Counted from the first letter of the stretch, positions 3,756-52,754 are shown. The stretch: 64,000 nt of DNA from an uncultured Anaerolineales bacterium (GCA_964347945.1 CAYGAW010000055.1:4787-68786), one strand, 5' to 3'. Program-made: numbers and translations. The notes: generated from the letters alone by a model not told the origin.

Positions 3756-4454
3756 TTGATGGAACAGATAGAGCTGAGAGCCGAAACGCGAAACCTGTTC
3801 GGCAAGAAAACCAAGCGTCTGCGAAGATCGGGAATTGTCCCTGCGACCCTCTACGGACCGAGAATCGAAGCTATCTCTCTTCAGGTGCCAGAGCGAGATC
3901 TGCGTCTGGTACTGGATCGAGCTGGCATGAACCAACTGATCACGCTGTGGATAGATCAGGCAGACAAACCGCGTATGACGTTGGCTCGTGAGGTCCAACG
4001 CGATTTGATCACCCGGTCCCTCATTCACGTTGATCTGTACCAGGTGGTGATGACCGAGAGGATCACGGCCGACACGCCTCTCGTGCTTGTTGGAGAATCA
4101 CCTGGTGTGGTCGGCAAAGAGGGGTTGCTGGTGCGAGGCCTCGACTCGGTTGAGGTACAGTGTCTCCCTGGTGAGTTGCCGGAGTCCATAGAGGTCGATG
4201 TGAGCGTGCTAGAGGAGAAGGATCAAGCGATCTTGGTCCAGGATCTCGTCGTGGACGACGCTGTTGAGATCCTGACCAATCCCGACGAAGTCGTGGTCAA
4301 GCTACTGCCGTTCAGGGAAGTGGTGATCGAAGAGATCGTCCCGGAAGAAGTCGAAGTCGCTGAAGTAGAGGCCATAGCCGCAGCCGAGGAACGCGAAGAG
4401 GTATTCGCAGAGGAGGCGGAGCCACCGACCGAAGAGCAACCGGAAGGCGACTAG
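3756..4454 (+). CDS. rplY: Ribosomal protein L25 / Ctc family
   Basis: MEQIELRAETRNLFGKKTKRLRRSGIVPATLYG plus an acidic C-terminal tail, as in long-form L25/Ctc. The start may be ATG 3759 rather than TTG 3756. Confidence 0.9.
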   Translation: MMEQIELRAETRNLFGKKTKRLRRSGIVPATLYGPRIEAISLQVPERDLRLVLDRAGMNQLITLWIDQADKPRMTLAREVQRDLITRSLIHVDLYQVVMTERITADTPLVLVGESPGVVGKEGLLVRGLDSVEVQCLPGELPESIEVDVSVLEEKDQAILVQDLVVDDAVEILTNPDEVVVKLLPFREVVIEEIVPEEVEVAEVEAIAAAEEREEVFAEEAEPPTEEQPEGD

Positions 4455-4497: not shown

Positions 4498-5559
4498 GTG
4501 TTTAGTCCTTTGAACGCCGTTCTGGGTCTATTCTCCCGAGACATCAGCATCGACTTGGGTACAGCCAATACCTTGGTCCTGGTGCGAGGCCAAGGAATCG
4601 TAATCAACGAACCATCCGTGGTCGCCATCGAGAAGAAGAGCAAGAAAGTTCTGGCCGTCGGTGACGAGGCCAAGGAGATGGTCGGACGCACACCGGCTAA
4701 CATCGTCGCGGTCAGACCCCTCCGGGACGGAGTCATCTCGGACTTTGATGTCGCCGAGAGAATGCTCCACTACTTCATAAAAAAGGTCCATGAGCGGGCT
4801 CTCCTCCCTATTCCACGACCGCGGGTCGTCGTGGGTCTCCCCAGCGGCGTCACGGAGGTCGAAAAAAGGGCTGTGCACGATGCCTGTGTCAACGCTGGTG
4901 CCCGTCAAACTCTACTTATCGAGCAGCCCACCGCCGCCGCCATAGGAGCCGACCTTCCCATAAACGAGACAGTGGGAAGTATGATCGTTGACATCGGAGG
5001 AGGAACCTCGGAAATGGCGGTGTTCGCCCTCGGGGGCATCATCGCTAGCCGCTCTCTGCGAGTGGCTGGGGACGAGATGGACGAGGAGATAATTCGCTAT
5101 GCGCGTGAGAAATACAACCTCCTGATCGGCCAACGGATGGCTGAACGGATCAAGATCGCCATCGGCTCCGCTTACCCTCTCTCGGAGGAGCAGAGCATGA
5201 CGCTGCGCGGCCGCAATCTCATCACGGGTCTCCCGGAGGCCGTGGAAATCAGTAGCGTTGAGGTCCGAGAGGCCCTGTCGCCTACCGTGAACCTGATCGT
5301 CGAAGAAATCCGTACCACCCTCGAAGAAACCCCACCAGAGTTGATTGCCGACTTGATGGAACAAGGCATAGCCCTCGCCGGCGGTGGTGCTCTCCTCAAA
5401 GGGATAGCAGAACGCCTCTCCGACGAAACCAAGATGCGCGTCTATGTGACTGATGACGCGATGACGTGCGTGGTTCGTGGCGGGGGGATAGTTCTCGAAC
5501 ACCTAGATACCTTGACCCACTTACTGACCACCACTCAGCGACGCAACACACGGCGCTAG
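4498..5559 (+). CDS. mreB: Rod-shape protein MreB
   Basis: FSRDISIDLGTANTLVLVRGQGIVINEPSVVAI and DIGGGTSEMAV motifs. 353 aa. Confidence 0.95.
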   Translation: MFSPLNAVLGLFSRDISIDLGTANTLVLVRGQGIVINEPSVVAIEKKSKKVLAVGDEAKEMVGRTPANIVAVRPLRDGVISDFDVAERMLHYFIKKVHERALLPIPRPRVVVGLPSGVTEVEKRAVHDACVNAGARQTLLIEQPTAAAIGADLPINETVGSMIVDIGGGTSEMAVFALGGIIASRSLRVAGDEMDEEIIRYAREKYNLLIGQRMAERIKIAIGSAYPLSEEQSMTLRGRNLITGLPEAVEISSVEVREALSPTVNLIVEEIRTTLEETPPELIADLMEQGIALAGGGALLKGIAERLSDETKMRVYVTDDAMTCVVRGGGIVLEHLDTLTHLLTTTQRRNTRR

Positions 5560-5574: not shown

Positions 5575-6411
5575 TTGTCGCGGTTCCGGCGAGGAGGAAT
5601 TGCCATATTCCTCCTCCTTTTCCTTTCATTAGCGGTGCTTGGCTTGCTCCTCGACCGAGCCAACCGCCTTCAGCCCGTGAAGAATGCTGTGAGCCTAATT
5701 ACTGTGCCTGTGCAGGAGGGACTCACCTCCCTGGCGGGTCGCGTCGCCAACGCCCGTCGCTTCTTCGCCGATGTGGAGGCCTGCCGGGCGCAGAATGAAG
5801 ACCTGCAAGTGCTCGTCGATCAACTCATCATCGAGAATGTGCGCCTGCGCGAGGCTGAGATCGAAAATGTGACTTTGCGAGAACAGCTCAATTTCAAGCA
5901 AGCCAACCCGTCCCTTGAACTCCTGTCGGCGCAGGTCATTGGTCGGGACCCGAGCAACGTGGTGAGCTATCTGATCATCGATCGAGGCACTGCAGAAGGC
6001 GTTGCTGTCGGTATGCCGGCCCTCACGCACCGAGGGCTAGTGGGAAGAGTGACAGAGGCCAACCTTCGCTCCTCCAAAATCCTCTTGATAACGGACCCCA
6101 GCAGCTCGGTCAATGCTGTGATTCAAGAGTCACGCGCCACAGGCGTGGTCCAGGGAAAAGCGCGGGAGGCGCTTACGATGCGTTACATCCAGCAGACGGA
6201 GGAGGTTAGTCCCGGCGACTTGGTGCTTACCTCCGGGCTGGGAGGCAACTTCCCCACGCGACTGATCATCGGCCAGGTGACCTCGGTTAGGAAGAAAGAC
6301 GTCGAACTGTTCCAAGAAGCCGAAGTGAGGCCGGCCGTCGAATTCTGGCGGCTGGAGATGGTCATGATACTCACCAGCTTCGAGCCTATCGACTTCGAGA
6401 GTGAGGAATAG
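5575..6411 (+). CDS. mreC: Rod-shape protein MreC
   Basis: N-terminal TM segment, a coiled-coil region (ENVRLREAEIENVTLREQL), a C-terminal beta domain (GLVGRVTEA..., LVLTSGLGGNFP), and position directly after mreB. Confidence 0.85.
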   Translation: MSRFRRGGIAIFLLLFLSLAVLGLLLDRANRLQPVKNAVSLITVPVQEGLTSLAGRVANARRFFADVEACRAQNEDLQVLVDQLIIENVRLREAEIENVTLREQLNFKQANPSLELLSAQVIGRDPSNVVSYLIIDRGTAEGVAVGMPALTHRGLVGRVTEANLRSSKILLITDPSSSVNAVIQESRATGVVQGKAREALTMRYIQQTEEVSPGDLVLTSGLGGNFPTRLIIGQVTSVRKKDVELFQEAEVRPAVEFWRLEMVMILTSFEPIDFESEE

Positions 6412-6423: not shown

Positions 6424-6933
6424 TTGCCTATCAAGACCTACGCCGCTTTTGCATTGCTGGCTGCGGTGGCGCTGGTTCAGTCATCGGTGCTCTACCGCTT
6501 CTCCCTGGTGGGCGCACGCCTCAACCTTATGCTCCTTGTCGTAGTGTCATGGAGCCTGCTGAGGGGACCCAGAGAGGGAATCGTCTGGGGCTTCATTGGC
6601 GGTCTGTCTCTGGACTTTCTCTCAGGCGCGCCGATTGGCAGCTGTGCATTCGCCCTCACTGTCGCGGGATATCTCGCCAGCCTGGGCCAGTTGACTCTCT
6701 ACCGTACGAGCCCGGCGTTCCCCTCTGTCGTAGCTCTCGGAACCAGTCTAGTCTATGATATCATAATCATGATACTTCTTTCCACGACTGGTCGCTTGGC
6801 GGCATGGCAAGAGACCCTCGTCGCAGTCACCATGCCGACTGCCTTACTCGCGAGCTTGATGATGCCCCTGGTGCATCGAGGCCTGACTTGGCTTCACCGC
6901 AAGACGCTTCCGGAAGAGACGGAACTCCAGTGA
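6424..6933 (+). CDS. mreD: Rod-shape protein MreD
   Basis: 169-aa polytopic membrane protein immediately after mreC. The size and hydrophobic pattern are typical of MreD. Confidence 0.7.
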   Translation: MPIKTYAAFALLAAVALVQSSVLYRFSLVGARLNLMLLVVVSWSLLRGPREGIVWGFIGGLSLDFLSGAPIGSCAFALTVAGYLASLGQLTLYRTSPAFPSVVALGTSLVYDIIIMILLSTTGRLAAWQETLVAVTMPTALLASLMMPLVHRGLTWLHRKTLPEETELQ

Positions 6934-7089
6934 CAGAGTAGTTGATGGCGAGATCCGGGCTCAACAAGATAGCTCCGTGTGCCGGGGCACGGATGACTAT
7001 CTGCTTGCCAAACTTGCTCGCATCATATGCTGGCCGAGTGGAGCGAGCTCATCTGCTTTAGTGGCGACTTCTACCGCTTGGCGCCACTC

Positions 7090-7396
7090 TCGAAGGGGAG
7101 GAGCAGGCTGGATGATGACCTGCACCTGGTCATATCTGCGCCAGCCTGGCGAGAGAGCGCTGCCATGCTTGTGCCAGCCCGCAGTCGTTATGCGTTCGGC
7201 CAGCAGGTGGAAACGGGGTGAAAAGGTGAGACACTACCATGGAGTTTGGATCAGGGAAGAGGTCCCTTTGGGTAGCTACGCACTGCAGGTGACACCAGTT
7301 GACCCACCACGCCAGACGGCATGCCTCTCCTGGGTGACTGACGCTAGCCTGGTACAAGGCTACCTGGAGTGGTCACCAATCGAGGCGAAAAGCTAA
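7090..7396 (+). pseudogene. Relic copy of the GT-C C-terminal beta-sandwich repeat
   Basis: The frame of ORF 6977..7396 gives RRGGAGWMMTCTWSYL...SRWKRGEKVRHYHGVWIREEVPLGSYALQVTPV. Repeat 3 of the downstream gene reads RKGGSLELDLTWQAL...SQWREGETVVDPHTVWTDGNAPLGLYRVQVGLY. The middle of the repeat is deleted and the composition is rich in W, C and R. It ends at TAA 7394-7396, directly abutting the GTG start of the next gene in the same frame. Confidence 0.35.
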
Positions 7397-10300
7397 GTGT
7401 ATCGTCCGGCATTTAGGCCCAGCACCGGTGTCCCTCTGGTCTTGGCTGCGAGCTTGATAGCCGGGGCCTTCTTGAGCCGCTTCCTCACCGAGAATGCACA
7501 CTTCGGCTGGAGTGTCTTCTCCCTGTGGCTAGCATCGGCCGCCTTGGTGGCGCTGCTCGGACTTTCGGCTGCGCTTCTTTGGCGCACCGTGGTAAGGCAC
7601 GCGTTGGGCAGAGACCCGTTGTTGGCGGACGCATTGTGCCTTCTTCCTCTGCTTCTGCTGGCTCTGTATTTGTTTCAGCGGGAAGTAGATACACTCCAAG
7701 CCTCTGTCCTTCTCCTTGGCTCCCTCTCGCTGGTGGCAATTCTGATGGTCTCCAGGAAAGTGAGGAAAGAATGGACGGATAGAGCACTTCTGACGTTCAT
7801 CTTCTTTCTGCCGGTCGCCATGTACGTCAAGACTCTACTCCCTACCGTCGGCGAACACGACACCTTCGAGTTTCAGGTGCTGGCGTACCGACTAGGTATC
7901 GCCCATCCCACTGGCTATCCGCTGTACATCCTGCTGGGAAAGCTCTTTTCCTTCCTCCCCGTCGGAAACGTCGCCTATCGTCTGAATTTGTCGTCGGCGT
8001 TGTTCGCTGCCGGCGCCACGGTGCTAGTGTACGCCACCATCCACCTTCTCACGCGGCATCGAGCCGCGAGTGCTCTTTCAGCATTGAGTTTCGCCTTCAG
8101 CTACTCGTTTTGGTCCCAAGCTGTGGTGGCAGAGGTCTATGCACTTAACGCCCTGCTCGTCGCGTCGATCTGCTACCTGCTCCTTCGTTGGAGCCGCGAG
8201 GCGACGGATGATCCCAGAAGCTGCCAGGCCAAGCCGGAGGCGCGCGCCGCGCCCGTCCCAGCCAGGCTCCTGGCCCCACTCGGCCGCAGGTGGGCACTGC
8301 TGGTGACAGCTTCGTTCGTCTGCGGTCTGAGCCTCACTCATCATCGTACGATGCTGCTGTTGCTGCCCGCCGTCGTGCTGTACCTTCTGCTGAGTAGGCG
8401 TTGGACTGGCGTTCAAGTCGCCAGCGCACCAATACTGATCGGCGTCTTTGCTGTGCCACTTGTCGGCATACATCTGTACATACCGATTAGGTGGTGGCAG
8501 ATGCACGGCAAGATCATGCCCGTGAGCGAGTTCACAGACCTGATCCTGGGGACTCAGTTCGCCGGCGCCCTGCGGTGGGATGCCTGGCTTCGAGAACTGG
8601 ATCGGCTGCTCATGTACATTCGTGTCCTGCTGGAACAGTATCCTCTGCCCGCACTGGCACTCGCTCTCTTCGGCCTCTTCTGGCTATTCCGACCTGGAAG
8701 AACCTCCACGGCATATCCTGGTTGGAAGGAAGGGGTCTTCCTACTGACAGTCTTCATCGCCTATGTTCTCTTCGGTCTGAGCTACTACGTCCCAGACGTC
8801 TCGCTCTTCATGATCCCCTCACACTTGGTCATCGCTATCGCGCTGGGGATCGGCCTCAGCGCCTCGAGTCAGCTTGCTGAGAAGTGGCTCTCAAGCCTGG
8901 ATGCAGTCCCGCTCTCAACAGGGAGTACGATTGTCGGGGCAGCAACCCTATCTCTCGCAGCTCTACTTCCCATGAGTCTTATCTGGACCAACGTGCCGAG
9001 AGTGGACAGAAGCGACGAATACGCTAATTACGAGTGGGGTCGATACGTCCTACAGCAGGCGCTTCCCTCCTCCGCCGTGATCCTGGCTGACAGTGAGAAG
9101 ATAGCCCCCCTATACTATCTCCAGAAGGTGGAAGGCGTGCGAGCCGACACCGAGGCAGAGGTGTTCCCCGACGAGCAGAGCAACCGTGAGGAAGTAGAAA
9201 GGAGATTGGCGGAAGGAAGGCCTGTATTCCTGGCACGCTTCCTACCGGGCCTGGAGACGAGATACCACCTGCGATCTCTAGGGCCTCTTGTCGAGGTCAG
9301 CACCCACATGTTGACGGAAGTGCCCGTCGAGATCACTAGCTCGGATTGGAGCTTTGGAGGTGAGGTACTATTGCGGGGCTATCGCCTAGACTCGACGCAC
9401 GTCAGCGCCACCGACACGGTGCGTCTGACGTTATACTGGGAAGCTACGGAACGGATAGCGCAGAACTACGACGTTCGACTTCGTCTTGTAGGCCCTAGCG
9501 GGCGCGTGTGGCACCAGACTAGAGGAAGGCCGCCGGTGAACGGCTTATATCCTACTGCAGCCTGGCGTGCTGGAGAGATCGTGCCGGATTTCCACGAGTT
9601 GTATCTGGAAGGCAAGGTGCCTCCTGGGAGATACGCGCTGCAAGTCGGCTTGTTCGCGCCTTTCAGACAGGAGGGCCTCGCTGAAGTAAACACCGCAGAG
9701 GAATACGTCGCCATTGCGGAAGTCTCTATCAGTTATGCAGACCAATGGTCACCCACCATTGACCACCCCATGCGCGCGAGCTTCGACAATCGGATTATGC
9801 TGCTTGGATATGACCTGCCCTCGACTGCCTATCCCGGGGCAGAAATCCCCCTGACGCTCTATTGGCAGAGGATAGGCCACGTGCCCGTGGACTACGATGT
9901 GGCGATTGAACTGTGGGGATCTGGTTCAAAGCTCCTGCGGAGCAGTGTCGAGCAGCCGCTGTTCGGCGAATATACCCCATCTCGATGGAGAGAGGGTGAA
10001 GTACTGGCCGATGCGCACCTGGTAAGGATACCTCCCACTGCCTCTGGCCTGCTACACCTGCGGATTGCCATGCAAAATCCCGCAACCAAGCATGCCTTGC
10101 CGGTGGTAGACGGCTGGCCGGCTCGGCAACAGTGGTCCGCTACCCTTTCCGAAATCCGCGTCGAAGGATTGCCCGAAAGCACGAGTTCTGCAGACTATTC
10201 GCCCGCCAATTTCGAGGGCAAGATCCTGCTTCTGGGCCATGAGATTCACAATGTCCAAGTGAGAAAGGGTGGGTCTCTGGAACTGGACTTGACCTGGCAG

Positions 10301-10606
10301 GCTCTAGCCCCCGTTCATGAAGACTACACAGTGTTCGTTCATCTTCTGGACGAGTATGACCGGATCTGGGGTCAGGAGGACATACAGCCCGTCTACGGGA
10401 CCCGCCCCACCAGCCAATGGCGCGAAGGCGAGACGGTAGTAGACCCCCATACAGTATGGACCGATGGGAACGCACCACTGGGCCTGTATCGAGTCCAGGT
10501 TGGCCTCTATCTTCTTCGCACCATGGAGAGACTACACGTTCTCGACCCCTCCGGCAATCCAATTGGCGACAAAGTCATCATCGGCCTGATGGAGATAGTG
10601 CCCTAG
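7397..10606 (+). CDS. DUF2723/TMEM260-type GT-C membrane glycosyltransferase with three C-terminal ~100-aa lectin-like repeats
   Basis: About 530 aa of polytopic membrane domain carry the signature EHDTFEFQVLAYRLGIAHPTGYPLYILLGKLFSFLP (7853-7960). Three repeats follow at about 9352-9660, 9782-10075 and 10211-10603. Their pattern is LLGY...L.LYW.A....DY.V.V.L....G..W.Q....P..G..PTS.W..GE.V.D.H......PLG.Y..QVGLY. Confidence 0.75.
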   Translation: MYRPAFRPSTGVPLVLAASLIAGAFLSRFLTENAHFGWSVFSLWLASAALVALLGLSAALLWRTVVRHALGRDPLLADALCLLPLLLLALYLFQREVDTLQASVLLLGSLSLVAILMVSRKVRKEWTDRALLTFIFFLPVAMYVKTLLPTVGEHDTFEFQVLAYRLGIAHPTGYPLYILLGKLFSFLPVGNVAYRLNLSSALFAAGATVLVYATIHLLTRHRAASALSALSFAFSYSFWSQAVVAEVYALNALLVASICYLLLRWSREATDDPRSCQAKPEARAAPVPARLLAPLGRRWALLVTASFVCGLSLTHHRTMLLLLPAVVLYLLLSRRWTGVQVASAPILIGVFAVPLVGIHLYIPIRWWQMHGKIMPVSEFTDLILGTQFAGALRWDAWLRELDRLLMYIRVLLEQYPLPALALALFGLFWLFRPGRTSTAYPGWKEGVFLLTVFIAYVLFGLSYYVPDVSLFMIPSHLVIAIALGIGLSASSQLAEKWLSSLDAVPLSTGSTIVGAATLSLAALLPMSLIWTNVPRVDRSDEYANYEWGRYVLQQALPSSAVILADSEKIAPLYYLQKVEGVRADTEAEVFPDEQSNREEVERRLAEGRPVFLARFLPGLETRYHLRSLGPLVEVSTHMLTEVPVEITSSDWSFGGEVLLRGYRLDSTHVSATDTVRLTLYWEATERIAQNYDVRLRLVGPSGRVWHQTRGRPPVNGLYPTAAWRAGEIVPDFHELYLEGKVPPGRYALQVGLFAPFRQEGLAEVNTAEEYVAIAEVSISYADQWSPTIDHPMRASFDNRIMLLGYDLPSTAYPGAEIPLTLYWQRIGHVPVDYDVAIELWGSGSKLLRSSVEQPLFGEYTPSRWREGEVLADAHLVRIPPTASGLLHLRIAMQNPATKHALPVVDGWPARQQWSATLSEIRVEGLPESTSSADYSPANFEGKILLLGHEIHNVQVRKGGSLELDLTWQALAPVHEDYTVFVHLLDEYDRIWGQEDIQPVYGTRPTSQWREGETVVDPHTVWTDGNAPLGLYRVQVGLYLLRTMERLHVLDPSGNPIGDKVIIGLMEIVP

Positions 10607-10696: not shown

Positions 10697-10725
10697 TTGT
10701 AACGTGGTCAAGTGTGACGTATAAT
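10697..10725 (+). promoter_or_regulatory. Internal sigma-70-type promoter for mrdA, giving a near-leaderless transcript
   Basis: TTGTAA (10697-10702), a 17-nt spacer, then TATAAT (10720-10725). The ATG at 10736 is only 10 nt after the -10 element and no Shine-Dalgarno sequence lies between them. Confidence 0.5.
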
Positions 10726-10735: not shown

Positions 10736-12688
10736 ATGGAGACCAAGGGACCGAACATCAAGGTTCTCGTATTCAGGGCCTTCGTTGTTGCCAGCTTTGC
10801 CCTGCTGGCCTTTCAAAGCTGGCAGCTCCAGATTGTGCGAGGCGAACAGTACCTCGAGCAGGCAGAGGGCAACAGATTTCGTCTTCGAGCCATCGATGCC
10901 CCGAGGGGTGTGATATACGACCGCAATGGCCGTCTGCTGGCTGGTAACGTGCCTAGCTTCGCCGTCTATATCGTCCCAGCGGATCTACCGGAAGAGGACG
11001 AGGACTACGTGTTCCAGCGGTTGTCCACCCTCCTAGAGATCCCAGTGAGCATTGAAGACCTCGACATCGGGTACGAGCCACTGGCCGAGCGCCATTCGCC
11101 TTCTCAGGGAGAGGAGTACAAACCAGAACCACAGATGATGGAGCGCGTGCACGCTGGTAGGGGAACCCCGCTCGCCCCTGTGCGTGTGAAATCGGACGTG
11201 CCCAGAGACATCGCATTCATCATCGAAGAAGAGCGTCTCGAGCTACCCGGTGTGATCGTAGAGACCGAACCCCTGAGGGAATATATCTCCAGCACCCTGG
11301 TCTCTCACGTGGTCGGCTACGTAGGGCACATTCCTGAGCGGGAGTTGGAGACTTACATCAACGGCCCGGATGCGGACTATGATGCGAATGACATCGTGGG
11401 ACTAACCGGAGTGGAGCTCACCTTTGAAGACGAATTGAGGGGCCGCAAGGGCCAGAGACACGTAGAAGTTGATGTGACGGGAAGAGAGATAGGGACCATC
11501 GGCGCTCCTGTACCACCCGTATCCGGGCGCAATCTAGTTCTCACCATTGATGTCGACTTGCAGGCGGTGGTGGAAGAAGCACTGCGAGCAGGCTTGGCCG
11601 CAGCCAATTCCGACTCGGGGGTAGCCATCGCCATGCATCCTCAGACGGGCGAAGTGCTGGCCATGGTCTCCCTGCCTAGCTACGACAACAACCTCTTCAT
11701 TGGCGGCATCTCTCAGGAAGAGTACGCCGAGCTGAGCGAGGATCCACGGCATCCCTTGGTCAACCACGCCATAAGCGGGCAGTACCCACCCGGGTCTACT
11801 TTCAAGGTGGTAACCGCTGTGGCAGGCCTGGAAGAAGGGGTAGTGGATCGATATGCCCTGTTCAACTGTCCTGGGACCATATGGATCCCGCACCGCTTCG
11901 CTCCCGATAACCCTGATCTGGCGCAGCCGTTCAACTGCTGGGCTACTGATGGCCATGGTTCCCTAAGCATCGTGCAAGCAATCGCGCAGTCCTGCGATAT
12001 CTATTTCGGCCTCCTCGCTGGAGGATATGGAGAATTCGAGGGGCTGGGGGAGGAGGCTCTGCACAATTACGCTGTCCTCTTCGGTGTAGGTCGGCCGACG
12101 GGCATAGACCTACCCGGCGAGAGCACAGGATTGGTCCCGGATGCAACCTGGAAGCGCCTGACGTATGGTGAGACCTGGGTTACAGGGGACACCTACAATG
12201 CCGCCATCGGGCAGGGTTTCATCCTGGCCACGCCTTTGCAGATGCTAGATGCCACAGCTGCGATTGCCAACGGCGGACGTCTCCATGAGCCACAGATCCT
12301 TCGTGAAATCAGAGATGCTGACGGCCGTGTGGTTACTCCTTTCAGTCCCCAGTTGATTCGCGAACTGCCCATCTCCGACGAAACGATAGGCCTTATCACG
12401 CAGGGCATGCTGGGCGCGGTCTCGTATGGTACGGCGCTGGGAGCCAGGTTGCCAGGGGTGGCTGTGGCCGGCAAGACAGGTACCGCTGAGTATCCCGGGG
12501 AGCGTGACTGGGAAGGGAACCTTCCGACACATGCCTGGTTCACGGCCTTCGCTCCCGCAGACGACCCACAAATCGCCCTCGTTGTGTTCGTCGAGGGCGG
12601 CGGAGAGGGCAGTAAGGTGGCAGTTCCGATCGCCGCAGAGATCCTCAGTTACTATTTCAATGTACCAGTGCTCGAATCACTGGAATGA
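10736..12688 (+). CDS. mrdA: Penicillin-binding protein 2, the elongasome transpeptidase
   Basis: N-terminal TM segment, QIVRGEQYLEQAEGNRFRLRAIDAPRGVIYDRNGRLLAGNVPSF, and the transpeptidase motifs STFK and KTGTAE. Confidence 0.9.
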   Translation: METKGPNIKVLVFRAFVVASFALLAFQSWQLQIVRGEQYLEQAEGNRFRLRAIDAPRGVIYDRNGRLLAGNVPSFAVYIVPADLPEEDEDYVFQRLSTLLEIPVSIEDLDIGYEPLAERHSPSQGEEYKPEPQMMERVHAGRGTPLAPVRVKSDVPRDIAFIIEEERLELPGVIVETEPLREYISSTLVSHVVGYVGHIPERELETYINGPDADYDANDIVGLTGVELTFEDELRGRKGQRHVEVDVTGREIGTIGAPVPPVSGRNLVLTIDVDLQAVVEEALRAGLAAANSDSGVAIAMHPQTGEVLAMVSLPSYDNNLFIGGISQEEYAELSEDPRHPLVNHAISGQYPPGSTFKVVTAVAGLEEGVVDRYALFNCPGTIWIPHRFAPDNPDLAQPFNCWATDGHGSLSIVQAIAQSCDIYFGLLAGGYGEFEGLGEEALHNYAVLFGVGRPTGIDLPGESTGLVPDATWKRLTYGETWVTGDTYNAAIGQGFILATPLQMLDATAAIANGGRLHEPQILREIRDADGRVVTPFSPQLIRELPISDETIGLITQGMLGAVSYGTALGARLPGVAVAGKTGTAEYPGERDWEGNLPTHAWFTAFAPADDPQIALVVFVEGGGEGSKVAVPIAAEILSYYFNVPVLESLE

Positions 12689-12803
12689 CAGGTACATTCT
12701 GCGCTTCCGATTCGAGGCAACCCCAGCAGGGAGCAAGCGCGGGCAACCGGAGACTTTAGTCCCCGACACACCCATCGGGACCTCTAGAAGCAGGAGAGAG
12801 TGA

Positions 12804-13919
12804 CTGATAGACGGTAGAACTTGGCAGCACTTTGACTTCAAATTGTTTGGAGCCACCCTCGTCCTTGTGGCTTTGGGCGTAGCACTGATCTACAGTGCCA
12901 CGCTCGCGTCTGCGCCGCCGAGCCAAGACTGGTGGGACACCTTTCTTGCTCGTCAGATCATCTACGCCGTCTTAGGCATAGCGCTGATGCTCCTTGTTTC
13001 CTTCACAGACTACAGCATCTTCGCCAATGTCAATCACCTCATATACGGCCTCACAATACTATCGCTGATACTTGTGTACGCAGTGGGTCAGATATCCTTC
13101 GGGGCGCAGCGTTGGATCAGCCTGGGGTTCTTCGATCTCCAGCCTTCGGAACTCGCAAAGGTGCTGCTCATCATCGTGCTGGCTAAATTCCTGGCGGACA
13201 GGCGGGAAGATCTGAAGCGACTGCCGTACTTCCTGATGTCGCTGGTCTATGTGGCAGTGCCAATCGTCTTCGTTTACATCCAGCCGGATTTAGGCACGGC
13301 GATTGTTCTCGGCGTGTGCTGGCTGGCCATGGTGCTGATGGCGGGAGTGCGTTTCAGGCACCTGGGTCTCATTGCTGCGATTGGGCTCATCGCTTCGCCC
13401 CTGGTCTGGAGTGCGTTGCATGGATACATGCGGGAACGCATCTTTGTCTTCCTCAACCCTGAACGAGACCCGTTGGGCGCTGGCTATAACATAAACCAGG
13501 CCCGCATCGCCGTGGGCTCTGGGGGCTGGCTTGGGCAAGGGTTCGCGAGGGGAAGCCAGAGTCAGCTGCACTTCCTGCGCGTCAGACACACTGACTACGT
13601 CTTTTCTGTATTAGGGGAGGAGTTGGGGTTTGTGGGCGTCGTCCTGGTATTGATCCTGTTCCTCGTGGTCATATGGCGCATGTTGAGAGCAGCCGAGATG
13701 GCGCGGGACACCTTTGGTCAACTGATCGCTTGTGGAATCACCACAGTGATAGCCTTCCAGGTTATTGCCAATATTGGCATGAACGTAGGCCTGTTGCCCT
13801 CATCGGGAGTACCGCTACCATTCGTCAGCTATGGAGGAAGCGCGCTTGTGGCCCTTCTGATCGGGGAAGGCGTAGTGCAAAACATCATCATACGTCACAA
13901 GAGACTCGAATTTCAGTGA
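12804..13919 (+). CDS. rodA: SEDS glycosyltransferase RodA
   Basis: FtsW/RodA family, with ten-TM character, GLPLPFVSYGGSALV and RHTDYVFSVLGEELGFVG. The ORF track starts at TTG 12843. The upstream in-frame residues LIDGRTWQHFDFKL resemble the conserved RodA N-terminus, and AGGAG (12792-12796) sits 7 nt before CTG 12804. Confidence 0.85.
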   Translation: MIDGRTWQHFDFKLFGATLVLVALGVALIYSATLASAPPSQDWWDTFLARQIIYAVLGIALMLLVSFTDYSIFANVNHLIYGLTILSLILVYAVGQISFGAQRWISLGFFDLQPSELAKVLLIIVLAKFLADRREDLKRLPYFLMSLVYVAVPIVFVYIQPDLGTAIVLGVCWLAMVLMAGVRFRHLGLIAAIGLIASPLVWSALHGYMRERIFVFLNPERDPLGAGYNINQARIAVGSGGWLGQGFARGSQSQLHFLRVRHTDYVFSVLGEELGFVGVVLVLILFLVVIWRMLRAAEMARDTFGQLIACGITTVIAFQVIANIGMNVGLLPSSGVPLPFVSYGGSALVALLIGEGVVQNIIIRHKRLEFQ

Positions 13920-14045
13920 CCGGCCGCGTTTCGCGACAACCGTATGCAGATAGGAGCGCAAGGGTTCCAGCTGGATTCGACGCGCTACCGCTACTTGAGG
14001 TGATCAACCCACGATGCGGCAAGACTCTTGGCGGAGAGTGCTTGC

Positions 14046-15527
14046 ATGACTGATAGCTCCCAGTCAGTACGTGTGCGCTTTGCGCCCAGCCCGACAGGGT
14101 ACCTGCACGTGGGAGGCGCCAGGACGGCTCTCTTCAACTGGCTGTTCGCCAGGAACCGTAGAGGTGCCTTTATCGTGCGCATCGAGGACACTGACAGACT
14201 GCGTTCTACCGAGGAGTCTACAGGAGGGATTCTGTCTTCCCTCGACTGGCTAGGGCTGGACTGGGACGAGGGCCCACGCGTAGGTGGCGAATTCGAGCCC
14301 TATTTCCAGATGCAGCGGTTGCCGTTCTACCAGGCGGTCATGGAACAACTTCTGGAGCAGAGAGAGGCCTACTACTGCTATTGTACGCAGGAGGAATTGG
14401 AGGCTCGGAGAAAAGCAGCTCTCGCTGAAGGGAAAGCCCCGGGGTATGACAGACGTTGCCGGTACTTGTCACCCCAAGAGACAGCAGCATGCGAAGCCGA
14501 GGGCAGGAAGCCTGCGGTTCGATTCGCCATGCCATTGGAGGGAGAGACCGTCGTTGATGATCTCATCCACGGTCGGGTCCGGTTCGGCAACGAGCAGTTG
14601 GATGACTTGGTGATTGTGAAGGCTGACGGTTCTCCTACCTACAACTTCGCAGTTGTGGTCGACGACGTGCTGATGAAGATCAGCCACGTCATCCGTGGCG
14701 ATGAGCACCTAGCCAACACACCGCGCCAGATCAGGATCTATGAGGCCCTCGGCTACCCCGTGCCGCAATTCGCGCACGTGTCCATGATCCTCGGTGAGGA
14801 TCGCGCCAAGCTCTCTAAACGCCACGGTGCCACTTCGCTGAGCGACTATCGAAACTCCGGTTATCTCCCTGAGGCTCTGTTCAACTTCCTGGCTCTCCTG
14901 GGTTGGGCATACGATGATCAGACCGAGATCATGAGCCGCGGTGAGATCATCGAACGCTTCCGTCTGGAGAATGTGAGCCCCGCTCCGGCGGTTTTCTCCA
15001 AGGATAAGCTAGACTGGATGAACGGAGTCTACATCCGAAACCTGCCCGCGGATGATCTGGCCACACGTCTCTTACCGTTCCTGGAGAACGCAGGACTGAC
15101 GGTGGAAAGGAAGACCGTGCGGCGGCTTGTGCCTTTGGTCCAAGAGCGCATCAAGGTGCTCGCCGATGCGGTGCCTCTTGTTGACTTCTTCTTCCAGGAG
15201 CATATCACCTACGACGCGGAACTGCTGATCGGCAAGGGGATGGATAGCGCACATTCCCTGACCGCTCTGGGGAGAGTTGGCGAGGCTCTGGATCGGCTCC
15301 CCACCTTTGACGAGACAGCCTTGGAGAGCACTCTGCGCGACCTCGCTGGAGAGCTGGAGTTGAAGGCGGGTCAGCTGTTCGGCATTATCCGGGTCGCTGT
15401 CACAGGGAAGACAGTGGCACCCCCCCTCTTTGGCACCGTGAGCGTTCTCGGCAAAGAGCGGGTCCTGAGTCGCATTAAGGAAGCCGAGAAAGCGCTTACG
15501 GATCTTGTGGATCCAGACGAGGTGTGA
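14046..15527 (+). CDS. gltX: Glutamyl-tRNA synthetase
   Basis: VRVRFAPSPTGYLHVGGARTALFNWLFARN (HIGH region) and KLSKRHG (KMSKS). ATG 14046 is preferred over TTG 14028. Confidence 0.95.
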   Translation: MTDSSQSVRVRFAPSPTGYLHVGGARTALFNWLFARNRRGAFIVRIEDTDRLRSTEESTGGILSSLDWLGLDWDEGPRVGGEFEPYFQMQRLPFYQAVMEQLLEQREAYYCYCTQEELEARRKAALAEGKAPGYDRRCRYLSPQETAACEAEGRKPAVRFAMPLEGETVVDDLIHGRVRFGNEQLDDLVIVKADGSPTYNFAVVVDDVLMKISHVIRGDEHLANTPRQIRIYEALGYPVPQFAHVSMILGEDRAKLSKRHGATSLSDYRNSGYLPEALFNFLALLGWAYDDQTEIMSRGEIIERFRLENVSPAPAVFSKDKLDWMNGVYIRNLPADDLATRLLPFLENAGLTVERKTVRRLVPLVQERIKVLADAVPLVDFFFQEHITYDAELLIGKGMDSAHSLTALGRVGEALDRLPTFDETALESTLRDLAGELELKAGQLFGIIRVAVTGKTVAPPLFGTVSVLGKERVLSRIKEAEKALTDLVDPDEV

Positions 15528-15633: not shown

Positions 15634-15656
15634 GGCCCATCTCGGATGGGCCTTTT
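15634..15656 (+). terminator. Rho-independent terminator after tRNA-Gln
   Basis: Perfect 8-bp stem GGCCCATC/GATGGGCC with a 3-nt loop, followed by TTTT. Confidence 0.75.
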
Positions 15657-18007: not shown

Positions 18008-18064
18008 CTCAGTCACATTGACAGACTACGCGGGAACCGTCTGGGCTTCGATGCGAGGGACTGA

Positions 18065-18931
18065 TTGAGTTTCTGGGACAAGCTCCTCGGCAAGAGAGGC
18101 AGTAAAAGAGAACCTACGCTGCCCGAGAGGGCGACGGCTCCGCAACCAAGCCAGAAGGCAGATCCGCTTGAGATCGGACAAGGTACCCACATCGGCAGGA
18201 CCCGCGAAGCCAATGAGGACACCTTCTTGACGTTGAAGTCGGTGATCGGGGACGAAGCAGACCCTCTTGCCGTCGCGCTACTGATCGTCGCAGACGGCAT
18301 GGGGGGGCACATGAAGGGACAGGAGGCGAGTTCTCTTGCCATACGGGTGGCGGGCGAAGTCATCGTGAGAGAGGCCTTGCTACCCGTACTCTCACGTCGC
18401 GCATCCGAGATCGCCATTCGCCCTATTCACGAAATCCTGACCGAAGCCGCTGTGTCCGCCAATCAAGCGGTTGGAGAAATGGAATCGGATGCAGGAACAA
18501 CACTCACATGCGCCCTGGTGCTAGGACACAGCGCCTACGTGGCCCATGTCGGCGACACCAGAGTGTACTACCTGGATGACGACGGGCTGCAGCAGATCAC
18601 TCAGGACCACTCCCTCGTGAACAGACTCACGGAGTTGGGTCAGATCTCCGCCCAGGAGGCACAACATCATCCCCAACGCAACTTCCTGTATCGGGCCTTG
18701 GGACAGGGCCACGATCTGAAGGTCGACACCTATTCTCGGCGCCTCGAGACCGGCAGCCATCTCATCCTGTGCAGCGACGGCCTTTGGAGTGCAGTGTCCG
18801 ACGAAGAGATCGTAGACGTGATAGGGATTTCGTGTTGTCCCCAGGAAGCCTGCAATGAGCTCATTGCCCGCGCCAATGATCACGGCGGCGAAGACAACAT
18901 CACGATGATATTGGCCAAGATCAACTACTAG
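18065..18931 (+). CDS. PP2C-family Ser/Thr phosphatase
   Basis: LLIVADGMGGHMKGQEAS, GTTLTCALV, VAHVGDTRVY, LILCSDGLW and HGGEDNITMILAKI. Confidence 0.85.
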   Translation: MSFWDKLLGKRGSKREPTLPERATAPQPSQKADPLEIGQGTHIGRTREANEDTFLTLKSVIGDEADPLAVALLIVADGMGGHMKGQEASSLAIRVAGEVIVREALLPVLSRRASEIAIRPIHEILTEAAVSANQAVGEMESDAGTTLTCALVLGHSAYVAHVGDTRVYYLDDDGLQQITQDHSLVNRLTELGQISAQEAQHHPQRNFLYRALGQGHDLKVDTYSRRLETGSHLILCSDGLWSAVSDEEIVDVIGISCCPQEACNELIARANDHGGEDNITMILAKINY

Positions 18932-23587: not shown

Positions 23588-24313
23588 ATGACTGAGAATG
23601 AGCAAGCAGTGTCCGTGGATTTGGTGATCCCGGTTTACAATGAGGAACGAGCCCTGGAACCGAGCGTAAGAGCTCTGCGCGCGTTCCTCCAAGAACGCTG
23701 CCCCTATAGGTGGCGCATCGTCATAGCCGACAACGCTTCCGTTGACCGCACTCTGGAGGTGGCCAAGACGCTGTCCTCTCTCTACCCGGAAGTGAGCTAC
23801 CTACACCTGGACCAGAAAGGGCGCGGCCGGGCTTTGCGACGCGCCTGGCTTGATAGCGAAGCTGATATCTTGAGTTACATGGATGTGGACCTGTCAACAG
23901 ATCTTGAGGCGTTTCCGTTGTTGGTCGACGGACTTGCCAAGGAGGGGTACCACATCGCTATTGGCTCACGTCTCAAGCACGGGGCGAGAGTGGAACGGCA
24001 GTTGAAAAGGGAGATCATCTCCCGGTGCTACAATGTGTTGATCAAGCTGATGTTCCGAAACAAATTCTCGGACGCGCAGTGCGGGTTCAAGGCGCTGACC
24101 CGACACGCTGTTCAAGACCTGGTACCGATAGTCAAAGACCAAGGTTGGTTCTTCGATTCGGAGCTGCTCCTTAGGGCTGAGCAGAAGGGATACCAGATCT
24201 ACGAGGTTCCTGTGCGCTGGATCGATGACCCGGACAGTCGGGTTAACGTCTTCCAGACCGCTTGGGGTGACTTCAAGGGACTTGTCAGGGTACGGTTCAC
24301 CTCCATCGAATGA
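23588..24313 (+). CDS. GT2 glycosyltransferase, polyprenol-phosphate sugar synthase-like (DPM1/GtrB/ArnC type)
   Basis: VDLVIPVYNEE, IVIADNASVDRT, a DVD motif (YMDVDLSTD) and SDAQCGFKAL. The ORF-track start at 23087 is an antisense extension over ftsY. ATG 23588 (MTENEQ) fits the family N-terminus. Confidence 0.8.
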   Translation: MTENEQAVSVDLVIPVYNEERALEPSVRALRAFLQERCPYRWRIVIADNASVDRTLEVAKTLSSLYPEVSYLHLDQKGRGRALRRAWLDSEADILSYMDVDLSTDLEAFPLLVDGLAKEGYHIAIGSRLKHGARVERQLKREIISRCYNVLIKLMFRNKFSDAQCGFKALTRHAVQDLVPIVKDQGWFFDSELLLRAEQKGYQIYEVPVRWIDDPDSRVNVFQTAWGDFKGLVRVRFTSIE

Positions 24314-26585: not shown

Positions 26586-26619
26586 TCGATTCCAGCAACC
26601 TACTCTGGGAGAGAGAAGT

Positions 26620-28434: not shown

Positions 28435-28478
28435 TACAGTCCCTCAAACAGGAGCATTGCGTCCACGGCCTCCACAGC

Positions 28479-30053
28479 CTACTCTAGAGTTATGACGGTA
28501 CCGCGAGTGGATACTGGCAGCCTCTCACGGGTGTCTGGATCGTACACGCCAAGCTGGATCCTGTATCCCTTGCGCGGACCCTCAACATCTATCTTCAGTT
28601 GGTGTTCGTCCACCACTATCTCACCCATCTCCCACGAACTTGTGGGCTTCTCACCCTGCGCTGGCATGGCATCGCTCTGTCCCCAAATCGTGCCTTCGGG
28701 GTCGACAACGTGCACGAACACAGTGTAGTCCGTCCCCATCGGTCTTAGCGCCTGCCAATACAGGGTTAGCCGCACTGTCGCTCCGTGAAGCAGAGGACCT
28801 TCCCGCCGATAACTCAGTAGAGTCATTTCATCCCCTACTATTGCCAGCGGCGCCGCACCGACTTCCACGTCCGTGAAATGCGGGGTCAGATAGCTGTAAC
28901 TTGCCAGGACCGTCAACGTCAGCAAGACCGCCTGCCAATGAAACCGACCTAGCTCCCGGGCCAAGCCCACGGCGCCTCCCGAAGCCGCCGCCATACTCAG
29001 ACCGACGAGAGCCAGAAGCTGCCATGGGTATCGCAACAGTAACGAAAGCAGGCTGATCCGCCAGATGAGAGCCGCGGGATGGAGCAGCAGCAGAACCATG
29101 ACGAACGATGTTGTCACGAAAAACCCTACTCGTCTCACCACCGTGGGATCCGCTTCTCCTGCCCCCAGCCAGAGCATGCCAGCGAACAAGGTCAAGCCTG
29201 TGGCCACCAGGCCCACCTGGAGCGGCAATGTGTCGTCCCAGCCCGGCAGACTAGCCCCGTACCCCCAGCTTGCCGACAGCAGCTGGAAAGGATAGACGAA
29301 GTGCTGCCAGAAATCCTCCCCGCTCTGCAAAAGGATTCCGTGTCTCAACGCCATCGGTAGTTGCAGAAGCATGGCAAGACCCAGGCTTGCCGGTAACAGC
29401 AGAAGCGCCTGTCCTCTCGCTCGCCGGGAGGGAGAGAGGACCAAGACGTAGGCGAGCAAGAACAGGACAAACAACAGTGCTAGTCCAAGGTTGGTCAGCG
29501 CCAAAGAAGCATGCAGCAGAATGGCCGCCACACCCCATAGCGCGGCCCTCTGGGACATGAACTTCTCATAGCACAGAAGGATGAAGGGATAGAGCACGAG
29601 AGCCCAGGCCTCGGCAAAGGCACCTCTCACATACACTGTGGCCAGATGATAGGGCAGATACGTGTAGACGACGCCTGCTACCAAGCCTCCTCGAGAACCG
29701 TAAAGTTGCTTTCCCAGCAGGTACATGCCAACACCGGAGGCCACGAAGCTGATGAGATAGACACCCTCGATCGCTTGCACACCTCCGATCCCTAGCCACC
29801 GCAGAAACTCGGCGATGAGGTAGGGGACGGGCCCTTCTCGCGTGAGCAAATCCCACTCCCCCGCGGCACTAGGCAGCCAACCCCAATTGCCCCAAAGATT
29901 GCGCTCCAGGTCATAAAGATCGAAGACGGGCAGGAAACCGGAGTGGGATTGATGGAAGCCGGGGCGGGTCAAGGGAGCGAAGGCGAAGACGCTAAGGAGG
30001 GCTACCAATACGAGGTTGACGTCCAGCCGTATTCGAAACTCTGACCACTTCAT
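28479..30053 (-). CDS. GT-C-like polytopic membrane protein, paralog 3, with a C-terminal lectin-like repeat
   Basis: It shares LPYHLATVYVRGAFAEAWAL with paralogs 1 and 2. Its C-terminus (about 28485-28840) reads MTLLSYRREGPLLHGATVRLTLYWQALRPMGTDYTVFVHVVDPEGTIWGQSDAMPAQGEKPTSSWEMGEIVVDEH...GYRIQLGVY. This is the same repeat seen three times in 7397..10606. Confidence 0.7.
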   Translation of the reverse strand: MKWSEFRIRLDVNLVLVALLSVFAFAPLTRPGFHQSHSGFLPVFDLYDLERNLWGNWGWLPSAAGEWDLLTREGPVPYLIAEFLRWLGIGGVQAIEGVYLISFVASGVGMYLLGKQLYGSRGGLVAGVVYTYLPYHLATVYVRGAFAEAWALVLYPFILLCYEKFMSQRAALWGVAAILLHASLALTNLGLALLFVLFLLAYVLVLSPSRRARGQALLLLPASLGLAMLLQLPMALRHGILLQSGEDFWQHFVYPFQLLSASWGYGASLPGWDDTLPLQVGLVATGLTLFAGMLWLGAGEADPTVVRRVGFFVTTSFVMVLLLLHPAALIWRISLLSLLLRYPWQLLALVGLSMAAASGGAVGLARELGRFHWQAVLLTLTVLASYSYLTPHFTDVEVGAAPLAIVGDEMTLLSYRREGPLLHGATVRLTLYWQALRPMGTDYTVFVHVVDPEGTIWGQSDAMPAQGEKPTSSWEMGEIVVDEHQLKIDVEGPRKGYRIQLGVYDPDTRERLPVSTRGTVITLE

Positions 30054-32614: not shown

Positions 32615-32960
32615 TACCTGGGGCGAAAAAAGGTAGGGGCGCGAAGAGCGACAAGAGCGCGGCACAAAGAGAAAGCCAACAGACATGAACCGCCTGTTGG
32701 CTAGAGCCTGCGTCCCCCATCTTGCCGTGTGCTATCATTGTTTTGAACCTGCCGAGGCAGGTGGGTGCCTACCTGTCGGGTTTGCCCTCTCGGACAGCGC
32801 CTCCAGAGATCGGCTCCCTGTATATAGGTATTGGCTCAAAACGCTGATCACAGCATCACGAGCATGACGGGAGACGCATTTCTATTATAGCACATTATCA
32901 AAACCAGTGCAAGCTGGGCCTCAGAAGAGAAATCCTCTAGCCCAGCGACGGACAATCTGT

Positions 32961-32966
32961 TATAAT
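32961..32966 (+). promoter_or_regulatory. -10 box giving a near-leaderless GNAT transcript
   Basis: TATAAT at 32961-32966 lies 9 nt before ATG 32976, with no Shine-Dalgarno sequence between them. Confidence 0.4.
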
Positions 32967-32975
32967 GCGCCCACG

Positions 32976-34007: not shown

Positions 34008-34017
34008 GGCGAAGACA

Positions 34018-41349: not shown

Positions 41350-41523
41350 CTCTGAATGTACTGCTGTTTCGCACCTTCTAGACGCTGATCAGTATTGGGC
41401 GTGCCATGCAGTCTCGCGCACCGATGAAATGATCCCCACTCCTCAGCTGGCCCCTTTGGGCACACCCAATGAACTGGTCAGCACGGGGATCCACGCACTG
41501 CGATAAGGGCCGAACCAGCATCC

Positions 41524-43998: not shown

Positions 43999-44097
43999 CT
44001 GCCTCCTGACGGGCGCCTGGTAACGGAACCCGTTTGTCGCTCGTGAGTACAATAGGCTATAATGGTTCTTGGGCCTACTTGCCTGCCCAAGGTCATC

Positions 44098-44997: not shown

Positions 44998-45062
44998 ACC
45001 CTGTCCACACCTAGATCCGAATCCGTCTCTCTCGATCACGAGCTCATTACCCCACTATTCCC

Positions 45063-50725: not shown

Positions 50726-50744
50726 GGGATGACCTCCTCTCAGT

Positions 50745-52753: not shown

Positions 52754-52754
52754 C

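Follow-up and report, generated by a model that had tools for sequence, protein, structure and literature searches.

A TMEM260-family GT-C glycosyltransferase encoded within the mreBCD-mrdA-rodA cluster of Anaerolineae

A 64,000-nt stretch of DNA from an uncultured Anaerolineales bacterium (GCA_964347945.1, CAYGAW010000055.1:4787-68786; hereafter the window) contains, at 7397..10606 on the + strand, an open reading frame (ORF) of 1069 aa with a GTG start, encoded inside the cluster of cell-elongation (elongasome) genes mre/mrd/rodA and on the same strand. The product, hereafter the window GT-C, is an integral-membrane GT-C glycosyltransferase of the TMEM260/DUF2723 family with four extra N-terminal transmembrane (TM) helices. 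The enzyme family is already known; as far as checked, the new elements are the architecture (TM extension and beta-sandwich fingers) and the conserved place in a class-wide elongation operon. This operon linkage suggests that wall growth is coupled to wall or protein glycosylation in Anaerolineae, a class of filamentous bacteria. In the reading preferred here, to which we give a probability of roughly 0.55, the enzyme uses a polyprenyl-phosphate sugar to glycosylate an extracytoplasmic acceptor, in step with elongation.

The gene order was determined with Pfam and NCBIfam models, with scores well above the cut-offs: L25, mreB, mreC, mreD, GT-C, mrdA, rodA and gltX follow each other on the + strand, which confirmed the order from mreB to rodA given in a preliminary description of this DNA. 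A protein identical to the window GT-C (P0001) is on record from an Anaerolineae metagenome-assembled genome. The cluster is composed as follows:

3756-4454, +, ribosomal protein L25 (Pfam/NCBIfam)
4498..5559, +, mreB (PF06723 E=1.5e-139; TIGR00904 470 bits)
5575..6411, +, mreC (PF04085 E=3e-46; TIGR00219 139 bits)
6424..6933, +, mreD (TIGR03426 66 bits, cut-off 34.9)
7397..10606, +, TMEM260/DUF2723-family GT-C, 1069 aa (PF11028, profile match, AlphaFold2 model)
10736..12688, +, mrdA, encoding PBP2 (TIGR03423 608 bits)
12843..13919, +, rodA (TIGR02210 369 bits)
14028..15527, +, gltX, the conserved final gene of the cluster (Pfam/NCBIfam and relatives)

The best terminator-like hairpin was found 3' of gltX (15634-15652) and was the sole good one in this operon stretch.

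The assignment to the DUF2723/TMEM260 family, already made in the preliminary description, proved right. The PF11028 TMEM260-like model matched aa 155-334 of the window GT-C (E=2.3e-39, 135.4 bits against a cut-off of 24.2), and a profile of 26 orthologs searched against the PDB matched human TMEM260 (9rql_A, E=2.9e-50) over 430 residues (profile positions 131-558, chain residues 30-462), extending into the start of the TMEM260 luminal domain. The NCBIfam search with the whole protein gave no match. Residues were mapped by hidden Markov model (HMM) alignment to TMEM260 (9rql), read against the TMEM260 papers (PMC10214176; bioRxiv 10.64898/2026.03.17.711096), in which D52 and H67 are essential; R264, Y267 and R355 are mannose/phosphate contacts (bioRxiv 10.64898/2026.03.17.711096). 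Columns were counted in the alignment of the 26 orthologs. The two catalytic regions and the residue equivalences were:

7859..7924, +, donor-site motif D155-TFE158-FQ...GIAH170-PTGYPL in the first extracytoplasmic loop (HMM alignment to TMEM260)
9017..9316, +, Rossmann-like 'palm' domain, alpha/beta and extracytoplasmic, aa 541-640 (strands alternate with helices in the model; TMEM260 residues 421-462 by alignment)
TMEM260 D52 (donor site, essential): window D155, 26/26 orthologs
TMEM260 E55 (donor-site loop): window E158, 26/26 orthologs
TMEM260 H67 (donor site, essential): window H170, 26/26 orthologs
TMEM260 D441 (catalytic base, Rossmann-like 'palm'): window E567, acidic in 23/26 orthologs
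Same loop, two residues before TMEM260 D441: window D565, 26/26 orthologs
TMEM260 R264 (donor contact): window G385, invariant Gly in 26 orthologs
TMEM260 Y267 (donor contact): window F388, F in 23 and Y in 3
TMEM260 R355 (donor contact): window S469, not conserved

The equivalents of D155 and H170 were present in every long-clade protein (about 1000-1100 aa, see below). By alignment only, D441 corresponds to E567, with the invariant D565 two residues earlier in the loop A-D565-S-E567-K. Because the catalytic residues are invariant, the window GT-C is very probably active as an enzyme; its donor recognition would differ from that of TMEM260, provided that the loop alignment is right.

An AlphaFold2 model of the window GT-C was built with the 26 orthologs (mean predicted local distance difference test score, pLDDT, 83.8; predicted TM-score, pTM, 0.81) and showed, in order, four N-terminal helices, the GT-C core from about aa 124, the alpha/beta domain and three all-beta domains. 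No tetratricopeptide repeat (TPR) domain was found in the Pfam scan of the protein; in the model, the three all-beta domains follow the Rossmann-like domain instead. The Rossmann-like segment itself matched nothing in Pfam at E≤10. When the full model was searched with Foldseek, ArnT (5f15) was the best core match; TMEM260 was not returned, its entries probably being too recent for the library searched, and complement macroglobulin-domain arrays matched the tandem repeats with no useful superposition (TM-score 0.07-0.12). Positive residues occur at the N-terminus and in loop 119-129 (RKVRKEWTDR) and for this reason a cytoplasmic N-terminus is predicted, with D155 and the C-terminal domains extracytoplasmic.

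For the analysis of gene order in relatives, a synteny scan was carried out with one genome per GTDB species, giving 80 loci (designated by L numbers), all from Chloroflexota. MreB, MreC, MreD, MrdA, RodA, GltX, MinC, MinD and MinE were located in these loci by tblastn, and a neighbour-joining tree was calculated from the GT-C cores. Proteins of about 1000-1100 aa formed one clade (the long clade) with three sub-clades, and this orthologous group appears to be restricted to the Chloroflexota class Anaerolineae. The possibility, raised in the preliminary description, that the insertion is unique to this genome was not borne out: the ortholog lies inside the mreBCD/mrdA/(minCDE)/rodA cluster in 24 other Anaerolineae contigs (36-85% identity), in two positions relative to mrdA. 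All 25 loci of sub-clades i and ii have the gene in the cluster (36-100% identity; the count includes the window, partial contigs and six metagenome/NCBI contigs). In sub-clade i (window, L001, L004, L082, L083) the order is L25-mreBCD-[933-aa YfhO/PTPS_related GT-C]-GTC-mrdA-(minCDE)-rodA-gltX-Ser/Thr kinase-PP2C. In sub-clade ii (L002, L003, L006-L012, L029, L030, L036, L042, L051, L062, L076, L081, L084-L086) the order is mreBCD-mrdA-GTC-(minCDE-rodA-gltX), and the distance from the mrdA end to the GT-C start is 0-100 nt, unless the two genes overlap by 4 nt; in L081 they abut (mrdA end at 10000, GT-C start at 10001), and in L086 the 4-nt overlap results from an mrdA end at 9004 and a GT-C start at 9001. 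Linkage is weaker in sub-clade iii (Ardenticatenales/Promineifilales), where GTC-rodA-gltX are adjacent in L024 and L028 and rodA is located 2-10 kb downstream in L015, L038, L040 and L064. Short DUF2723 paralogs (620-880 aa) are unlinked to the mreBCD-mrdA-rodA cluster. The place of the long gene is thus kept despite its shift relative to mrdA, the gain or loss of minCDE and the loss of the YfhO-like gene, which argues for selection on the linkage.

Several variations of the cluster were recorded. The minCDE genes are located between mrdA/GTC and rodA in many relatives (e.g. L004, L006, L008, L064, L081, L082) and are absent from this position in the window (12689-12842), as well as in L001 and L083; minC, minD and minE were not detected by tblastn anywhere in the 64-kb window. 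In L084, a Peptidase_C39_2 gene (7715-8680) is inserted between mrdA and the GT-C gene. In L053 (4-6893), a short DUF2723 paralog of the unlinked type has, some 3 kb away on the opposite strand, a gene pair weakly similar (27-30%) to RodA and MrdA and probably ftsW/ftsI-like; no other match near a short paralog was seen.

Membership of the long clade coincides with an additional N-terminal segment, which in the window is:

7397..7765, +, N-terminal extension, aa 1-123, four predicted TM helices (model helices 12-33, 44-70, 76-92, 99-119)

Every long-clade protein carries about 110 additional N-terminal residues with about four TM helices, and in each of them the DxFEFQ motif is located at aa 138-276 (mostly 144-200), after several TM helices. 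Within the extension, R28 is invariant and E32 is present in 25 of the 26 orthologs. For comparison, the motif was searched in the short paralogs with a regular expression, which matched 27 proteins and gave no match in six more; in 26 of these 27, the motif is found at aa 36-84 after at most one TM helix, like D52 of TMEM260. The exception is L037, in which the motif is at aa 113, a crude count gave no TM helix and the start codon is uncurated. Conversely, L005 (1028 aa) has a long-type N-terminus, yet is outside the long clade and unlinked. The extension tracks cluster linkage: the linked loci all belong to the clade with the four extra TM helices, and the short paralogs are unlinked. The extension might contribute by docking.

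The C-terminal part of the window GT-C is composed of three tandem repeats, and a fourth intact copy is encoded elsewhere in the window:

9347..9730, +, repeat 1, aa 651-778 (alignment, model, HMM)
9776..10162, +, repeat 2, aa 794-922, least conserved (alignment, model, HMM)
10205..10597, +, repeat 3, aa 937-1067, the most conserved (alignment, separate model, HMM)
28482..28856, -, fourth repeat, C-terminus of the YfhO/PTPS_related-type GT-C 28479-30053 (independent HMM)

A repeat HMM that contained nothing from the window was made from the third repeats of 18 homologs and was searched against 891 six-frame segments of the window. It matched aa 652-753 (independent E-value, i-E, 4e-21), 795-905 (6e-15) and 937-1067 (1e-60) of the window GT-C, the C-terminus of ORF 28479-30053 (8e-32) and, weakly, the spacer between mreD and the GT-C gene (i-E 3e-5). 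The three repeats of the preliminary description were thus recovered, at about 130 aa each rather than the 100 aa it gave, and so was its fourth copy; the protein ending in that copy was not a paralog of the window GT-C, as it had been called, since it is a minus-strand GT-C of the YfhO/PTPS_related kind (PF10131), not DUF2723, and shares only the repeat. Pairwise identities of the three repeats are 26-34% (repeats 1 and 2 against repeat 3: 32% and 27%), and no repeats were detected by self-BLASTP of the C-terminal half, for which alignment and HMMs were needed. Among the 26 orthologs, repeat 3 has 18 invariant columns, repeat 1 has 9 and repeat 2 has none.

All three repeats are all-beta in the full model, and repeat 3 modelled alone gave a beta-sandwich of about nine strands (pLDDT 97.5). 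Its conserved positions cluster in GQxDxxPxxGxxPTSxWxxGE, which in the model leads from the end of a strand, by way of a short helix, to a long loop. The high conservation of this distal repeat suggests a specific ligand site, for which the segment is the candidate. In Foldseek searches against the PDB, the best matches of repeat 3 were all modest: the fungal effector NIS1 (E=7e-5, TM-score 0.56), the Aquifex aeolicus Wzt carbohydrate-binding domain (8dky/6o14, E=1e-4 to 6e-4, TM-score 0.58-0.62, root-mean-square deviation 3.3-3.9), NPC2, RbmA FnIII domains and the C-terminal domains of GH3 enzymes. A beta-sandwich fold, of the kind expected for a carbohydrate-binding module, was predicted; the label 'lectin-like' given in the preliminary description depends on the modest Wzt match (TM-score about 0.6), and the likeness would be at the level of a generic beta-sandwich. 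No Pfam model matched any of the repeats at E≤10, and the repeat profile gave non-significant Ig-like matches alone among PDB sequences.

The size of the repeat family was estimated by searching the repeat HMM against 1.84 billion cluster representatives (50% identity clustering), which returned 26,921 proteins at E≤1e-3, 18,412 of them at E≤1e-10; each of the best 150 matches had 2-4 copies. In a Pfam scan of 58 of the top matches, PMT_2 was found in 24, PMT in 8, TMEM260-like in 7 and PTPS_related in 3, Wzt_C (PF14524) in 1 at E=4.6e-7 and MG2 weakly in 2. The repeat is a large unannotated module, C-terminal in several GT-C families.

The apparent 464-nt gap between mreD and the GT-C gene (spacer 6934-7396) is not empty:

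7136..7375, +, decayed 3' end (last repeat) of a second GT-C gene of the YfhO/PTPS_related type (tblastn, repeat HMM)

L001 (8063-10864) and L082 (7199-10000) have, between mreD and their TMEM260-like gene, an intact gene for a 933-aa GT-C; its product matches PF10131 (4.9e-14) and PF09586 YfhO (8.6e-13) and carries two C-terminal copies of the window repeat. In tblastn, 80 aa of the L001 protein aligned to the spacer at 36% identity (E=1e-11), with a further piece upstream in another frame, and no DNA-level match between the spacer and the L001 933-aa gene was found by blastn. In L083, an 85%-identical relative, the spacer is 83% identical at the DNA level, with indels and stop codons, and the flanking genes are 88-89% identical. 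The spacer accordingly holds a pseudogene relic, shared with L083 and equally broken there. A 139-aa ORF (6977-7396) was rejected as a small gene, its frame being broken in L083. Since this relic comes from a gene that is intact in L001 and L082, the ancestral operon encoded two distinct GT-C enzymes, both ending in this type of module.

Upstream of mrdA, the promoter-like site proposed in the preliminary description does exist, and it is conserved in three relatives:

10697..10725, +, sigma-70-like promoter match TTGTAA-17-TATAAT (10/12 matches)

TCTTG.A and TA[TC]AAT are shared by the window and L001, L004 and L082, and the remainder of the spacer of about 130 nt diverges. The site is likely to serve the cluster as an internal promoter. 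The GT-C gene of sub-clade i would then probably end an mreBCD-(yfhO-like)-GTC unit, and mrdA-rodA-gltX may have their own promoter. Co-transcription of the GT-C gene with mrdA and rodA is not guaranteed in this sub-clade; the gene linkage itself is unaffected.

The preferred reading, glycosylation coupled to elongation, can be set out as a pathway. A cytoplasmic glycosyltransferase family 2 (GT2) enzyme would load a monosaccharide onto polyprenyl phosphate, and the lipid-linked sugar would be flipped across the membrane. The window GT-C would use this polyprenyl-phosphate monosaccharide as donor and transfer the sugar, on the outer membrane face, to a hydroxyl of an acceptor bound by the beta-sandwich modules. 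Co-expression with MreBCD, PBP2 and RodA would place the transfer at the site and time of lateral wall synthesis. A possible maker of the donor substrate is encoded in the window:

23588..24313, +, candidate polyprenyl-phosphate-sugar synthase, small GT2, 241 aa from an internal ATG (PF00535 E=2.5e-24)

Its best NCBIfam matches, all below the cut-off, were the dolichyl/undecaprenyl-phosphate hexose transferases PgfS, AglJ, ArnC and PpgS. No GtcA/GtrA-type flippase turned up in the 64 kb, in which no search aimed at flippases was made. Three tandem YfhO/PTPS_related/PMT_2-type GT-C genes (24837-30053, -), the last of which ends in the repeat, divergently adjoin the GT2 gene; together, the GT2 and the three GT-Cs look like a multi-component extracytoplasmic glycosylation locus. 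Secondary polymers are probably joined to the wall of this organism, to judge by an LCP glycopolymer-peptidoglycan ligase (45063-46415, -). The GT2, the three further GT-Cs and the ligase make up a context that fits glycosylation of the wall outside the cytoplasm. As acceptor, nascent peptidoglycan or a peptidoglycan-linked secondary polymer is our tentative first choice, and an envelope protein is ranked below it as a rather doubtful one. The glycan is slightly favoured because the repeat is common to many GT-C families and the Rod proteins have no Ser/Thr-rich disordered regions: in MreC, MreD, PBP2 and RodA of the window no such segment was found, the maximum being 0.20-0.30 Ser+Thr in 30 aa, inside folded regions. 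It is unlikely, to a greater degree than either acceptor, that the GT-C is an extra subunit of the Rod complex; as such it would dock via the four-TM extension onto RodA-PBP2/MreCD and glycosylate the nascent strand emerging from RodA, or a polymer that is being joined to this strand, with the three beta-sandwiches following the product.

Known systems were compared with the window GT-C. Mycobacterial EmbA/B/C and AftD are lipid-linked-sugar GT-C enzymes with extracytoplasmic beta-sandwich modules that bind the growing wall glycan. Their layout, to which the preliminary description had likened this protein, was found again as a GT-C core followed by beta-sandwich modules, and homology was not: Pfam identified PF11028 only, ArnT was the best core match, and neither Emb nor AftD was among the top 50 structural matches to the core. 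The window repeats belong to a different, unannotated domain family. In Bacillus subtilis the wall-teichoic-acid/LCP machinery is MreB-associated, and Streptomyces has an MreBCD-PBP2-Sfr spore-wall complex; both share with the preferred reading the concept that synthesis or attachment of a secondary wall polymer is spatially coupled to the Rod/MreB machinery. To our knowledge, this coupling consists of protein-protein contacts of separately encoded enzymes, with no GT-C in the operon.

The Wzt carbohydrate-binding domain of Aquifex aeolicus binds the O-antigen cap (8dky/6o14) and is among the best folds for repeat 3, and one repeat-bearing homolog matches its family PF14524; the window repeats have no Pfam match and no significant sequence match in the PDB. 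Human TMEM260 (PF11028; PDB 9rql/9rqm/9rqn) is a protein O-mannosyltransferase for IPT domains (PMC10214176). It shares with the window GT-C the homologous core and Rossmann-like domain, the D52/E55/H67 equivalents and the acidic loop at the D441 site; a polyprenyl/dolichyl-phosphate monosaccharide donor is likewise expected. The window GT-C differs in its four extra N-terminal TM helices, in three beta-sandwich repeats where TMEM260 has TPR fingers, in the R264 and R355 equivalents (by alignment), and in being bacterial and encoded in a cell-elongation operon. In Gram-positive three-component systems, a cytoplasmic GT2 (CsbB/GtrB/PgfS) is reported to make C55-P-sugar, a GtcA flippase is present, and a GT-C (YfhO/PgtC2/PgfM1) transfers the sugar outside, either to a teichoic acid or to PBP1a, PknB and FtsQ in their Ser/Thr-rich parts (PMC5836110; PMC12041528). 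The likeness lies in the YfhO/PTPS_related GT-C that adjoins the ortholog of the window GT-C in relatives and in the PgfS/AglJ-like GT2 of the window; the window GT-C itself is TMEM260-like and not YfhO-family, and none of the three-component systems is encoded within mreBCD-mrdA-rodA.

Several points weigh against the preferred reading, in which the statements on function are inferred throughout. TMEM260 is protein-specific and binds extended peptides, with the TPR fingers holding the acceptor (bioRxiv 10.64898/2026.03.17.711096), and the reported targets of YfhO-type enzymes are teichoic acids in Bacillus and Listeria but proteins (PBP1a, PknB, FtsQ and PrsA) in streptococci (PMC5836110; PMC12041528), so that homology does not favour a glycan acceptor. 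By alignment the equivalents of R264 and R355 are not kept (the loop alignment being uncertain), and the donor sugar cannot be deduced from it. The Wzt-like fold match is modest, and NIS1, NPC2 and FnIII domains, which are not lectins, are among the top matches. The conserved promoter-like element before mrdA would allow partly independent transcription. In sub-clade iii, rodA is within 10 kb in just 6 loci, and 11 loci with flanks of 9 kb or more on each side have no elongasome gene within about 10 kb, which makes the linkage dispensable; the recurring neighbours in this unlinked sub-clade are housekeeping genes alone (a pyridoxal phosphate (PLP) enzyme, a YihY-like membrane protein). In a rival reading, the protein is an envelope glycosyltransferase of general use that is not particularly tied to the Rod system, and its gene order was inherited from the Anaerolineae ancestor and kept by inertia like gltX, which has no obvious elongation link and is attached to rodA as firmly as the GT-C gene to mrdA. 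The losses of linkage (all in one sub-clade), the decay of the YfhO-like neighbour in a window that retains the cluster and the conserved internal promoter-like site agree with such inertia. We nevertheless consider it improbable, since the gene occupies two slots, before or after mrdA, yet is always inside the cluster in sub-clades i and ii, often abuts or overlaps mrdA, and remains linked down to 36% protein identity, and since linkage is limited to the clade with the four-TM extension whereas the many shorter paralogs of these and related genomes are unlinked.

The enzyme could instead be a protein O-glycosyltransferase like TMEM260, actinobacterial Pmt and streptococcal PgtC2/PgfM1, with extracytoplasmic proteins, possibly wall enzymes or wall-binding proteins, as targets; the beta-sandwiches would grip a polypeptide in place of the TPR fingers, and the operon would provide co-expression only. 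The TMEM260 homology, with the donor-site and Rossmann-loop acidic residues kept, speaks for this, as do the GT-C precedent of O-glycosylation of PBP1a, PknB, FtsQ and PrsA in streptococci (PMC12041528) and the LysM proteins with Pro/Thr/Ser-rich linkers encoded in the window (e.g. 50745-52472, 40% Ser+Thr in a 30-aa window). Set against these are the composition of MreC, MreD, PBP2 and RodA described above, the missing acceptor-binding TPR domain (Pfam, model) and the occurrence of the repeat in many GT-C families, which a shared envelope ligand explains more easily than a shared protein client; we hold this reading to be possible, with considerable doubt. Far less probable is a non-catalytic partner of RodA-PBP2, structural or regulatory (a RodZ-like or wall-sensing scaffold), that docks by the TM extension, touches the wall with its beta-sandwiches and retains a vestigial GT-C fold. 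The clade-specific extension with its conserved R28 and E32 and the large extracytoplasmic beta-sandwich array would suit a scaffold; the invariance of D155, E158, H170 and D565 and a donor-site motif kept clade-wide would be unexpected for a dead enzyme.

MreBCD, RodZ, RodA and PBP2 are regarded as the unvarying core of the Rod system. In the searchable literature, nothing was found linking a GT-C or an O-mannosyltransferase to the elongasome, mreBCD or the Rod complex, the term 'DUF2723' occurred only in a single paper, that on human TMEM260, and a function for a bacterial DUF2723/TMEM260 homolog was not described. A lipid-linked-sugar transferase conserved in the Rod operon throughout a bacterial class would mean that, in some lineages, elongation is directly coupled to the decoration of the wall or to the glycosylation of wall enzymes, and would offer a route into the poorly known Chloroflexota envelope. 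If it were a Rod subunit, it would be the first wall-modifying glycosyltransferase built into the elongasome. The long clade provides a defined context for finding the function of bacterial DUF2723/TMEM260 proteins, and the repeat of about 130 aa, with some 27,000 representatives and no Pfam model, is a good target for domain annotation and ligand discovery.

Further envelope genes were recorded in the window. A second envelope neighbourhood (39994-58452, -) encodes an S8 protease, the LCP ligase, a 1042-aa SpoIID-domain protein, the three LysM proteins, ftsZ (54608-55807) and an Amidase_2 + Big_7 protein (55822-58452). Three ORFs on the - strand, of 883 aa (41524-44175), 815 aa (59511-61958) and 183 aa (58950-59501), had no Pfam family at E≤1e-5. 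Downstream of gltX (15941-18931, +) are genes for a 688-aa Ser/Thr kinase, whose ectodomain is a PQQ-type beta-propeller, and for a PP2C phosphatase; this pair also follows the cluster in L001, L004, L082 and L083 and may be a wall-related signalling pair in which the propeller replaces PASTA domains. At 32907-35325 (+), an Acetyltransf_6 gene (PF13480, FemX/CelD-like GNAT kind) is paired with a glycosyltransferase family 4 (GT4) gene. The pair was rejected as a general neighbour of the GT-C, its orthologs (43% and 56% identity) being located directly after the GT-C gene only in two distant relatives, L085 (11999-14323) and L086 (12343-14774).

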